A stretch of DNA of 64,000 nucleotides from an uncultured Acidobacteriota bacterium (GTDB taxonomy: Bacteria > Acidobacteriota > Thermoanaerobaculia > Gp7-AA8): positions 704,001 through 768,000 of the forward strand of contig CAWGHO010000003.1 in NCBI GenBank assembly GCA_963822445.1, in the 5' to 3' direction. Positions 38,284-43,560 of the stretch are shown here, piece by piece. Numbering within the stretch: position 1 is the stretch's first letter; every line of letters starts with the position of its first letter. Under the pieces are notes generated by a model that saw only the letters and a program-made list of their open reading frames with translations, searched no databases and was not told the DNA's origin. The translations under genes and the position numbers were made by a program.

Positions 38284-40629
<2,346 letters not shown>

Positions 40630-40655
40630 CGCGACAGGATACAGTAGCGCTCGCC

Positions 40656-41351
40656 ATGCGCTCACTGCTCGCCGTCTCTCTGCTCGTCGCACTCACCGCA
40701 CACGCCGGAAATCAGGAGATGGAGAAAGCGCTCGCGCGCATCAATGCCTCTACGGAGGCGGCGGATGCGCTGGCGCCGTTTCTTTACATCATGGCTCACG
40801 CGTCCGAGGCGCCGGCGCTGCAGCTTTTCGTTGCGTCGACGGTTGCGATGGGGAACGAGCGTCTGGCAGATGCGGGATTTCTCTTTTACGCCGCGCAACT
40901 GCGCGCGCGATTCGATCTCGCCCGTTATCCGCCGAAAGGCACCGGCGGCAACAGCCCGGCCGCGCTCCTCGGCGCGCTGAATCAGCAGATCGGCGAAGCG
41001 GTCAATCCGGCGATCATGCGCGACCCGGTGGCGTTCGAGAAAGCGGTGAAGCGCGTCGCGGCATACGCGCCCGCGACGCCGGCCGATTATTCGCCGGGCT
41101 GGGAGTTCGCAACCACCGATCCCGCGGCGGCGACGAAGCTCTTCACCGAGCAGGCCGCCGAATTTGCCCGCACGATGGGCGGCATCGCGACGCTCCTCAG
41201 CGACCCGCAGTACTTCGCCGCCTTCAAAACCCTGCAGGACTTCAACTTCAACCCCGACCCGAAGGGGCTGAAGGCGAAGAACGCCGCGGAAGCGAAGATG
41301 CTGGCGATCGAGAAGAAGCGGGGGATCGAGGGGCTGTACTACAAGAAGTAG
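40656..41351 (+). CDS. secreted hypothetical protein
   Basis: Signal peptide ending AHA; host codon usage. Confidence 0.75.
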   Translation: MRSLLAVSLLVALTAHAGNQEMEKALARINASTEAADALAPFLYIMAHASEAPALQLFVASTVAMGNERLADAGFLFYAAQLRARFDLARYPPKGTGGNSPAALLGALNQQIGEAVNPAIMRDPVAFEKAVKRVAAYAPATPADYSPGWEFATTDPAAATKLFTEQAAEFARTMGGIATLLSDPQYFAAFKTLQDFNFNPDPKGLKAKNAAEAKMLAIEKKRGIEGLYYKK

Positions 41352-41468
41352 CCGCCGAGGGCCGGCGGGACGCCGGCGGACCAGATGAGATGAGAAGGCC
41401 AACCTCCCACGCAGTCGCAGGAATCTGCGCTGCAAGGAATGCGTCGAGCGCAAGAAAGGAGATTGGCC

Positions 41469-42575
41469 GTGAAAAAGTCTACCAGCGTCGTCACGTGTAC
41501 GAGCATGCAGAGCAATATCCGTGAAGCCGAGGTGATCGGGATCGATCTTGGAGATCGCGCATCGCACTTCGTGGGTCTGAACAGAAGCGGCGAAGTAGTG
41601 GCCACAGGAAGGGCGACGACGACAGCGACGGCGATCGCCAACGAGTTCGGCGCGATCGGACCAAAGTTGATCGCCATCGAGACAGGTACCCACTCTCCTT
41701 GGGTCTCGAGACTGCTCACGCAGTTGGGCCATCGCGTAGTCGTGGCCAACTCCCGAAAGCTTCGTCTGATCTACGAAAACCGCCGCAAGAACGACCGCGT
41801 TGACGCCGAGTACCTGGCACGGCTGGTGAGGATGGACCCGAAACTGCTCGAGCCGATCACGCATCGTTCCGAGCGCGACCAGCAGCATCTGGCACTTCTG
41901 CGTTCGCGCGACAAGCTGGTGCGGACTCGCACAGGTCTGATTACGCATGTTCGGGGCACGGTCAAGTCGATCGGTCTGCGGCTGCCGGCTTGCTCTGCAG
42001 AGGCGTTCGTAAGTCGGGCGATGCCTCTGATCCCGAAAGAGCTGAAAGCTGCTCTTGACCCTGTTCTTCGCAACGTCGAGCAGCTGAACAAAGACATCGC
42101 CGGCTACGACCGCAAGATCGAGCAACTCGCCAGGACCGAGTACCCGGCCGCGAAGCTGCTCATGCAGATCACCGGTGTGGGACCCGTGACGTCGGTGGCG
42201 TTCGTGGTCACGGTGGGCGACCCGGGCCGGTTCAGGAAAAGTCGCACGGCGGGAGCGTGGGTCGGTCTCACGCCGGGCCAATCCGCCTCGGGTCAGCAGG
42301 ACCCCCAGATGAGGATCACCAAAGAAGGAGACAACTATCTGCGACGGCTACTGGTCAGTTGCGCGCAGTACATCCTCGGGCCGAATCGACCAGACTCGGA
42401 TCTGCGCCGGCACGGGTTGGCGCTGGCGGCGCGAGGCGGAAAGAACGCGAAGAAACGAGCCGTGGTCGCGGTCGCACGAAAACTCGCGGTGCTCATGCAC
42501 AGGCTGTGGCGTACGGAAGGCGTGTACGAACCTCTGTTCAACGCCAACAGGAGTGCCGAGCACTCAGCAGCTTGA
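41469..42575 (+). CDS. IS110-family DEDD recombinase/transposase (start 41469 or 41504)
   Basis: GIDLG, IETG, KNDRVDA (DEDD); GVGP; GLTP.QSASG (catalytic Ser); AVARKL. Confidence 0.95.
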   Translation: MKKSTSVVTCTSMQSNIREAEVIGIDLGDRASHFVGLNRSGEVVATGRATTTATAIANEFGAIGPKLIAIETGTHSPWVSRLLTQLGHRVVVANSRKLRLIYENRRKNDRVDAEYLARLVRMDPKLLEPITHRSERDQQHLALLRSRDKLVRTRTGLITHVRGTVKSIGLRLPACSAEAFVSRAMPLIPKELKAALDPVLRNVEQLNKDIAGYDRKIEQLARTEYPAAKLLMQITGVGPVTSVAFVVTVGDPGRFRKSRTAGAWVGLTPGQSASGQQDPQMRITKEGDNYLRRLLVSCAQYILGPNRPDSDLRRHGLALAARGGKNAKKRAVVAVARKLAVLMHRLWRTEGVYEPLFNANRSAEHSAA

Positions 42576-42599
42576 GAACCAGGTAGAACCGATCAGCAA

Positions 42600-42810
42600 A
42601 GAAAGAAACTCGACTCGATCCCTCATCCGGGTGACTGCGAGCGGCGGCTTGGTCGGCAGCGATGCCAGACCGTGGACCAGATGGCAGCACCCAGTTGAAT
42701 CGGACCTCAGCATGCACCGAGCTCGATCGAGCTCACCAAGAGTGCGAATGGAAGCAAGGTCAGGACGAGCGGCGAGAGACAAAGGAGGGCGGCGCCACGT
42801 CGCCGCCCCT
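42600..42810 (+). ncRNA. putative bridge/seek RNA of the IS1111-type element (boundaries approximate)
   Basis: Segments matching the target flanks (42642-42650, 42674-42683) and the element ends (42622-42627, 42748-42755); terminal hairpin 42787-42808. Confidence 0.7.
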
Positions 42811-42866
42811 TGACAGGATCAGGCCTTCTCATGGAAGCCGCCGAGCCGGCGGCGCTCCAAGCGGCC

Positions 42867-42912
42867 GGAGCGCTGGCGTCCTCGCCGGCTGTACCGCTGG
42901 CGTCCCGCCGGC
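42867..42912. repeat. intact REP, inverted partner of the IS-interrupted copy
   Basis: Reverse complement GCCGGCGGGACGCCAGCGGTACAG|CCGGCGAGGACGCCAGCGCTCC aligns with 41361-41384 + 42838-42858. Confidence 0.8.
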
Positions 42913-42960
42913 TCACTGTCGACTTTGTTGCGCAAAGCCCTTTGTGCTATGTTGCAGTCC

Positions 42961-43560
42961 ATGCCGCGATCCTCCACCGCTCCTGCCTCCATTCACGAGA
43001 AGGCCCTGGCCGACCTCCGTTACATCCGCTCCGCCGTCGAAAACGCCGGTGAGTTCACCGCCGTCTCGGGACGCGGCGGCGTGGCCATGGGAGTTACGGG
43101 ACTCGTTGCTGCCGTCGCCGCGGCGACGCAGACCAGCTTCCCCGTGCGCTGGCTCGCCATCTGGCTCAGCGCGGCTGTCGTCGCCACCACCGTCGGCATC
43201 CTCTCGATGGCCTGGAAGAGCAGGCGCCTCGGAACCTCGCTGGTGTCGGGACCGGCGCGGCGATTCGCGCTCGCATTCTTTCCAGCCGTCGCCGCGGCCG
43301 CCGCGTTGACGATCGTTCTCGTCAGCCGCGCCGAGTTCGACCTTCTCCCGGCCATCTGGCTTCTGCTCTACGGCGTCGCGATCTCGGCCGGCGGCGCACT
43401 TTCCGTCCGCGTCGTTCCGTTCATGGGCCTGGCGCTGCTGCTGACCGGCGGCGCCGCGCTGCTGGTGCCGTTCGCGACCGCGAACCTTCTTCTCGGCCTC
43501 GGCTTCGGTCTCATCCAGATCGGCGGCGGCCTGGTGATCATCCGGAGGTACGGTGGCTAA
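42961..43560 (+). CDS. hypothetical multi-pass membrane protein
   Basis: About six TM segments; TGnTATGTT 7 nt upstream. Confidence 0.8.
   Translation: MPRSSTAPASIHEKALADLRYIRSAVENAGEFTAVSGRGGVAMGVTGLVAAVAAATQTSFPVRWLAIWLSAAVVATTVGILSMAWKSRRLGTSLVSGPARRFALAFFPAVAAAAALTIVLVSRAEFDLLPAIWLLLYGVAISAGGALSVRVVPFMGLALLLTGGAALLVPFATANLLLGLGFGLIQIGGGLVIIRRYGG

Follow-up and report, generated by a model that had tools for sequence, protein, structure and literature searches.

Insertion sequences of the IS1111 group, within the IS110 family, are the closest described relatives of the element analysed here. As set out in PMC11208160, their bridge RNAs lie in the right end of the element, with target and donor loops predicted, and their inverted repeats, 7-17 bp long and subterminal, are set in from the ends by short extensions. 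The account given of ISEc11 in PMC11187229 describes a promoter that is formed at the circle junction and reports no other promoter seen, and the same source gives the family's serine motif as GL-P----S(t)G. Here we describe an IS1111-type insertion sequence at positions 41385..42837 of a 64,000-nucleotide stretch of DNA (the window) from an uncultured Acidobacteriota bacterium of the class Thermoanaerobaculia (assembly GCA_963822445.1, contig CAWGHO010000003.1, positions 704,001 to 768,000). Positions are those of the window and features lie on its plus strand unless stated. The DEDD/Ser recombinase of this element is very probably directed by an RNA from the element's own 3' non-coding region. 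A preliminary description of the same DNA had proposed an RNA-guided recombinase from the letters of this one copy, and judged by comparison with related elements that proposal holds.

The element is 1453 bp long and is present as three copies, 100% identical to each other, in the window's genome. Identity between copies breaks exactly at ...CCAG/ATGAG on the left and at GGAAG/CCGCC on the right; because AG stands at both junctions, the boundaries 41383-42835 are equally valid. The subterminal inverted repeats, ATGAGAAGGCC on the left (41390..41400) and GGCCTTCTCAT on the right (42822-32), are 11 bp long and lie 5 nucleotides (nt) in from either end, within the range of the IS1111 group, and the left repeat is conserved in homologues. 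Outside them stand the terminal extensions ATGAG (41385-89) and GGAAG, the last two bases of which are the core AG (right repeat and extension together 42822..42837). The non-coding ends measure 84 nt on the 5' side and 262 nt on the 3' side, the longer downstream end being typical of the group. Direct inspection agreed with the preliminary description on the 11-bp repeats, on the AG at both junctions and on the sequence and coordinates of the four strings it had singled out, namely CGGCGGCTT (42642-50), GGACCAGATG (42674-83), ATGGAAGC (42748-55) and CTCATC (42622-27).

The transposase (recombinase) gene at 41469..42575 encodes 368 amino acids (aa) from a GTG with AAAGGAG 7 nt upstream; an alternative in-frame ATG at 41439 would give 378 aa. 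The N-terminal part of the protein matches PF01548 (DEDD_Tnp_IS110, E 5.9e-17) and the C-terminal part PF02371 (Transposase_20, E 2.2e-21), while the whole protein scores 228.9 bits, against a cutoff of 140, with the NCBIfam model NF033542, 'IS110 family RNA-guided transposase'. D26, E71, D109 and D112, which from their spacing we take to be the DEDD residues, are invariant in 19 of 19 homologues. The serine of the motif GLTPGQSASG (S274) is kept in 18 of these and its glycine in all 19. The C-terminal domain aligns with the solved IS621 (8wt6) and ISCro4 transposases, with S274 opposite the ESG serine of IS621, and is the only part that phmmer aligns with IS621 (E 3.8e-07). The domains, the family model, the catalytic residues and the three identical copies bear out the earlier inference of an intact element of IS1111 type. 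By these marks it is an intact, active-looking member of the IS1111 group of the IS110 family, and every defining feature of the group that is visible in sequence is present.

The three copies share the insertion site CGG(A/T)CCAG^CCGCC. The window copy is flanked by CGGACCAG^CCGCCGAG, giving the junction CGGACCAG^CCGCCG; the second copy is flanked by CGGACCAG^CCGCCTAC (junction CGGACCAG^CCGCCT) and lies outside any repetitive extragenic palindromic (REP) sequence; the third is flanked by CGGTCCAG^CCGCCGCA (junction CGGTCCAG^CCGCCG) and has a REP half on its left side only. Joining the window flanks with 41385-42837 removed yields a 46-nt repeat with two hairpins, identical at 46 of 46 positions to an uninterrupted copy in the same genome (C3:175468-175513), so the earlier statement that removal of the element rebuilds a REP is confirmed. 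The left half of the interrupted repeat occupies 41360..41384, and its last 8 nt (41377-84) are the left target half with the core AG, CGGACCAG. The right half (42838..42858) starts with CCGCC, the conserved right target half. A diverged, inverted partner that lacks the target sequence lies on the minus strand at 42867..42912, identical to the rebuilt repeat at 38 of 47 positions, and the empty locus shows the same pair arrangement with an inverted partner alongside. Insertion into the target sequence, CGGACCAGCCGCCG, is thus site-specific and without target duplication around a shared AG core, as in the IS1111 group. Two ORFs (open reading frames) on the same strand flank the element, one at 40584-41351 (255 aa, with a signal-like start) and one at 42925-43560 (211 aa, hydrophobic).

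Related elements allow the non-coding region to be read comparatively. A genome scan with the transposase protein returned three loci, with records of Acidobacteriota and Thermoanaerobaculia, and a search of the phylum matched 24 of 401 genomes at E <= 1e-40, the window's own (G000) included. After removal of second copies of the same element (L002, L003, L007, L031, L032, L033 and L034) and of loci without both repeats in reach (L006, L012, L015, L017, L019 and L027-L030), about 20 distinct elements with both ends in reach remained, at 44-83% protein identity. Alignment A3 comprises 19 scaffolds and corresponds to window positions 42601-42776, the predicted seekRNA/bridge-RNA scaffold, which is also the region covered by model R1; L021, with a scaffold that lacks an anchor, was left out. 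Common to the homologues are the repeat ATGAGAAGGCC, the ends AG^ATGrG... and ...CATrGAAG^, and the 3' non-coding scaffold. Their flanks differ widely.

Two segments of the scaffold would read the target. The top-strand (T) guide CGGCGGCU (42642..42650) is the complement of top-strand AG and CCGCCG, that is, of the core and right flank. The bottom-strand (B) guide GGACCAG (42674..42683) has the same sense as the left flank and core and is followed by AUG, the first 3 nt of the element; because it is identical to left flank and core, it is complementary to the bottom strand. The T guide lies 5' of the B guide and together they spell the 13-14-nt site CGGACC-AG-CCGCC(G), so that there is one segment per target strand, with overlap at the core and in the order described for IS1111 seekRNAs. 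To test the strings of the preliminary description, the 246-nt non-coding stretch was shuffled 1000 times by dinucleotide: the 10-nt left-junction match arose in 13 shuffles and the 9-nt reverse-complement match to the right junction in 23. Within the single sequence, these two target segments are the only ones that exceed chance.

Covariation between guides and flanks, which had been put forward as a check, is found for both target segments, in the 19 homologues and in hold-out loci. We scored a reverse-complement match to core and right flank followed, 12-60 nt on, by a direct match to left flank and core, leaving out L023 with its left flank of only 5 nt. This combined score averages 13.05 for an element's own target and 9.38 for those of the others; none of 20000 permutations reaches the sum, and 12 of 19 elements score strictly higher with their own target than with any other. 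Taken separately within A3, the longest run of the T guide is 7.1 with the own flank versus 3.45 with others, and the B guide has 4.68 versus 1.79 identities over 7 flank positions, core excluded (0 of 20000 permutations in each case). The register of the B guide is fixed across A3. L020 and L036, which have the core AA instead of AG, show the same AA in their B guides, and their donor guides, described below, read ATAGAAA. In the hold-out loci, which lie outside R1, right-flank matches of the T guide extend to 8 nt in both L006 and L027 and to 9 nt in L028. For the B guide, L019 has a match of 7 nt, L021 one of 10 nt and L017 one at 8 of 9 positions.

The consensus fold of the 19 scaffolds provides a structural setting for these segments. 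It consists of three helices, of which P1 closes the target-binding loop, its 5' strand GGGTGACTGC (42629..42638) pairing with GCAGCACCC (42684-42692); 98.2% of cells are paired over its 9 pairs, 3 of which have changed on both sides. P2 belongs to the variable hairpin between the target guides (42651..42671), where 42651-54 pairs with 42668-71 (4 pairs, 86.8% paired, 3 changed on both sides). P3 (GCAC/GUGC) pairs 42714-17 with 42742-45, encloses a variable inner hairpin (42714..42745 in all) and divides the strands of the putative donor loop; as all 4 of its pairs are invariant in 19 of 19 scaffolds, covariation speaks neither for nor against it. Over the three helices 96.0% of 323 cells are paired and 6 pairs have changes on both sides, a covariation score and a paired share reached by none of 500 shuffles; sliding the partners by 1-3 columns as a control gives 24.5-48.3% paired. 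The loop between P1 and P2 has a 5' strand and a 3' strand of 12 nt each. Both target strings of the preliminary description lie on these strands, in an internal loop of a covarying scaffold as it had anticipated. Run over the genome, R1 returned three hits, the three element copies, and no orphan copies of the RNA.

A second loop of the scaffold may read the ends of the element itself. On its 3' side, the strand adjoining P3 reads GAAUGGAAGC and holds the putative right-end donor guide AUGGAAG (42748..42754), which reads in the same direction as the element's final 7 nt, core included. Guides of this type equal their own right end at 7 of 7 positions in 17 of the 19 homologues and at 6 of 7 in the remaining two, tracking three variants of the end (ATGGAAG, ATAGAAG and ATAGAAA). 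On the 5' side of the same loop lies the candidate left-end donor guide CCUCA (42705..42709), whose CUCA complements TGAG at left-end positions 2-5. In 11 of 19 homologues the CUCA-type guide is in register and matches at 4 of 4 positions (0 of 20000 permutations), and the guide changes with the end that it would read: ATGGT with ACCA in L023, ATGGA with UCCA in L026 and, in a shifted register, ATAAGG with CCUUA in L014. The polarity of the two segments is that of the target loop. The preliminary description had equated ATGGAAGC with the right end. Its ATGGAAG portion gains its support from the homologues, an 8-nt match being at chance level when taken alone (141 of 1000 shuffles). Its final C falls away as a match to the flank: the trailing C of GAAGC is kept in 16 of 19 homologues whatever the right flank, and is therefore scaffold.

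It is possible that the target loop is the sole guide, that the protein reads the ends through the 11-bp repeats and that AUGGAAG and CCUCA are conserved scaffold resembling those ends. For ISEc11, PMC11187229 describes an 82-nt seekRNA with the two target matches only, which moved a mini-IS with higher efficiency than did the long form. As target matches alone sufficed there, a donor loop may not be needed in the group, and long subterminal repeats are given in PMC11208160 as what defines it. In addition, the donor ends vary little, with three variants on the right, so that the covariation of the donor loop rests on few events, and the right-end match in one sequence is of the chance-level frequency just quoted. 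We nevertheless consider a target loop acting alone unlikely. The right-end segment follows each of the three variants, the left-end segment follows ATGGT, ATGGA and ATAAGG alike, the two stand on either side of one loop in the polarity of the target loop, and donor loops are themselves among the predictions made for IS1111 members in PMC11208160.

Donor recognition was also part of the preliminary description, in a different arrangement in which CTCATC (42622..42627), just 5' of P1, pairs with GATGAG at the left end, so that the donor guides bracket the target loop. This segment is an exact 6-nt complement in the window element, a 5-nt complement in L004 and a 4-of-5 complement in L005, L008 and L009, where the odd position is a G.T wobble. 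Across the homologues it matches the left end at 5 of 5 positions in 1 of 19 and at 3 or fewer in 14 of 19. A match is expected by chance (590 of 1000 shuffles), and the permutation excess (765 of 20000) is due to close relatives. In L013, L014 and L016, with left ends ATGGG or ATAAGG, the segment has the sequence CGAGT or CCAGT, and in some homologues it can pair 3' of the donor loop, although the evidence for that pairing is weak. We therefore regard CTCATC as a very improbable donor guide, and CCUCA as the better candidate for reading the left end. CTCATC may instead belong to an outer helix: pairing of this segment with the 3' tail has a mean z of -0.83, with 6 of 19 homologues below -1.5, which is weak but suggestive.

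Protein recognition of the REP hairpin as the means of choosing the target, with incidental matches in the non-coding region, deserves hardly any credence: REP-like hairpins adjoin two of the three copies, the site has a hairpin on each side and G+C-rich palindromic sequence yields many short matches, but the second copy, away from any REP, still has CGGACCAG^CCGCC, segments that match the flanks are found at these positions of the loop also in homologues whose flanks are unrelated and non-palindromic, and an RNA-guided mechanism has been demonstrated experimentally for relatives in the work reported in PMC11187229.

Several findings weigh against an RNA guide of the proposed form and have to be set beside this evidence. 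Because the homologues are related, the permutation counts overstate their independence, and L001, L004, L005 and L008 share nearly one target. The register of the T guide moves one position either way (offsets 1-3), its runs are 5 nt or shorter in L008, L018, L023, L024, L026 and L036, L029 is a poor hold-out for it and L021 has a deviant T loop. When the order of T and B is reversed the excess persists, at 11.5 versus 9.4, as is expected for palindromic G+C-rich targets. A scan against Rfam 15 gave no credible match at E up to 10. Among public sequencing runs, no RNA run was listed as containing the sequence, and one soil-metagenome DNA run contained a small share (0.11) of its words. The single-sequence fold of 42576-42837 is no better than its shuffles (z -1.08), with a minimum-energy structure that holds P1 and P2. 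A 4-bp outer helix for the donor loop was tried and rejected, most rows being unpaired in register and the outer helix not alignable. Lastly, a scan of 41300-42950 for promoters of sigma-70 type found none in the integrated element.

The relation of the element to REP sequences can now be stated more closely. The genome contains at least 18 uninterrupted copies of the REP-like repeat, each of about 46 nt with two hairpins, counted as those 18 of 37 BLAST pieces that span repeat positions 12-40. The repeat is short, palindromic and present in many copies, as is characteristic of REPs, and in the window it sits between the two ORFs. The site CGGACC-AG-CCGCC(G) is located in the linker between the two hairpins of the repeat and is also found elsewhere. 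The preliminary description had held that insertion of other copies at unrelated sequences would count against it; all three copies occupy one consensus site. Its further proposal, that the element is programmed against a host REP family, stands in part: a 13-nt target is selected that occurs in REPs, while the second and third copies show that the REP as such is not what is selected. As the second copy lies outside any repeat, the selected feature is a short sequence rather than the palindrome itself. In the genome, the 13-mer CGGACCAGCCGCC still occurs unoccupied in four exact copies, 3 of them in REP-like repeats.

Unoccupied exact or near-exact targets of 12-13 nt also occur outside the repeats (G000 C1:1580398, C3:14187 and others), some of them apparently in coding sequence. 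In the closest relatives, L004, L005 and L008 from other Acidobacteriota, the site is G(G/A)GCCAG^CCGGCGAG and is likewise flanked by two hairpins, in a REP-like repeat that resembles the one described here. A small clade therefore has REP targeting in common, with more distant relatives found at unrelated sequences.

Some bases adjoining the guides match the element itself. At the right end of the element, the A that precedes the core is complemented by the U at 42650, which does not complement the C in the target; just 5 of 19 homologues show this correspondence. Within the L001 clade, the T guide continues into a U that fits the right end of the element. AU follows the B guide in 17 of 19 homologues and the left end has AT in 19 of 19, and as both are near-invariant nothing can covary there. 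As a result of such bases the target loop matches the integrated junctions over 10 and 9 nt, versus 7 and 8 nt for the empty site. For IS621, PMC11208158 describes two bases beside the top-strand guides that, once strands have been exchanged, pair with the other DNA. The preliminary description had suggested pairings of this kind for the matches extending beyond the core, and the U at 42650 would fit that suggestion. For the window element, a target loop that reads the integrated junctions better than the empty site might be tuned for excision, or might extend such a handshake to the bottom strand in addition to the top. We consider this improbable in either form. The handshake bases of IS621 flank the top-strand guides only, and neither tuning for excision nor a bottom-strand handshake is described for it.

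A promoter may be supplied by circularisation of the element. TTGACA, a -35-like box at 42810..42815, lies 22 nt from the right end, and the predicted circle junction would place GAAG/AT, a -10-like hexamer, 18 nt downstream of it. The hexamer is weak, at 3 of 6 positions to TATAAT. All 20 of 20 homologues have TTGAC at a distance of 21-22 nt from the right end, and at a spacing of 17-18 from it GAAGAT, GAAAAT or GAGGAT. A putative junction promoter, TTGACA-N18-GAAGAT, would probably drive the RNA. Directly before the TTGACA box is a G+C-rich hairpin (42787..42809), terminator-like on the minus strand, which may end a long RNA or block transcription from outside. L004, L005, L008, L009 and L021 have a hairpin in the equivalent position, with another sequence, and none is seen there in L013, L016 and L020.

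Beyond the sequence anatomy, we infer the following steps for the movement of the element. By analogy with published relatives, it would excise as a circle, in which a transcript from the junction promoter could carry both the gene and the RNA, shorter forms then being cut from that transcript. The RNA would bind the recombinase, as follows from the mechanism published for the family. Its target loop would pair with both strands of CGGACC-AG-CCGCC(G), and its donor loop would use CUCA and AUGGAAG to pair with the circle junction ...CATGGA-AG-ATGAG.... Insertion without duplication would then follow from recombination at the AG core that both share.

Several of the related loci have the appearance of decay. 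L016 (G259:C2) has leucine for the catalytic serine, GG at the right core and a deviant donor guide; L006 (CAVTGG010000005.1) has a frameshift in the gene and lacks the left repeat; and L019 (G352:C1) retains the RNA with no right repeat within 420 nt. In L021 (G266:C38) about 30 nt from past the right end are repeated inside the element's own non-coding region and the T loop mismatches the flank. The repetition may reflect a partial copy, either nested or in tandem, or else an artefact of assembly where the contig ends.

Our results provide a natural series of some 20 related elements from one little-studied soil phylum, in which a fixed RNA scaffold appears to have had only its loop segments rewritten for new sites. 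Tolerance of mismatch within the loop can also be read from the series, and includes the fifth base to the left of the core, shifts of the T guide by one position either way and G.U pairs. Such tolerated mismatches are a useful background for guide design. For annotation, this reading explains a 1.45-kb intergenic insert and predicts its remaining free sites, the four exact 13-mers.

A search of the literature for Acidobacteria together with bridge RNA or IS1111 gave no relevant paper at the level of titles and abstracts, and the supplements of PMC11187229 and PMC11208160 may list the clade. Among elements described in other bacteria, ISPpu9 and ISPpu10 of Pseudomonas putida are likewise IS110-family elements found in REP sequences (PMC12288879; for ISPpu10, PMC11208160). 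ISPpu9 resembles the window element further in that a small-RNA gene, Ssr9, lies downstream of the transposase gene (PMC12288879). Compared by description, the two differ in that extra solo copies of the RNA gene are reported for ISPpu9 in PMC12288879, whereas the window RNA is found only inside the three element copies.

The bridge RNA of IS621 also has two internal loops, one for target and one for donor, each with one strand for each DNA strand, according to the descriptions in Durrant et al. 2024 (PMC11208160), Hiraizumi et al. 2024 (PMC11208158) and PMC13626964. IS621 shares with the window element a core dinucleotide common to target and donor, the targeting of REPs (PMC11208160) and a recombinase C-terminal domain that aligns with 8wt6, and the U after the core complement of the T guide resembles the handshake base described in PMC11208158. 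The differences are that IS621 belongs to the IS110 group, with its RNA in the left end upstream of the gene and its guides in reversed order, that its core is CT and not AG, and that its subterminal repeats are only 2-3 bp long.

ISEc11, ISPa11 and ISKpn4, as presented by Siddiquee et al. 2024 (PMC11187229), are closer still. They have in common with the window element a DEDD recombinase with the motif GL-P----SG, subterminal repeats and a long downstream non-coding region, in which the top-strand complement stands 5' of the bottom-strand complement with overlap at the insertion point. Relatives of these elements have been retargeted naturally by changes in those segments alone, ISEc11 has a promoter formed only at the circle junction, as is predicted here, and ISPa11 also targets a REP (PMC11187229). 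The window element differs in its Acidobacteriota host, in its target sequence and in the length of its recombinase, 368 aa if the GTG is the start compared with the 330-350 aa quoted for the family in PMC11187229. It differs also in the comparative support it offers for a second, donor-reading loop, the sections of PMC11187229 on the short seekRNA describing no such loop. On its sequence features, the element is a clear new example of the seekRNA/bridge-RNA mechanism that has been in print since 2024.

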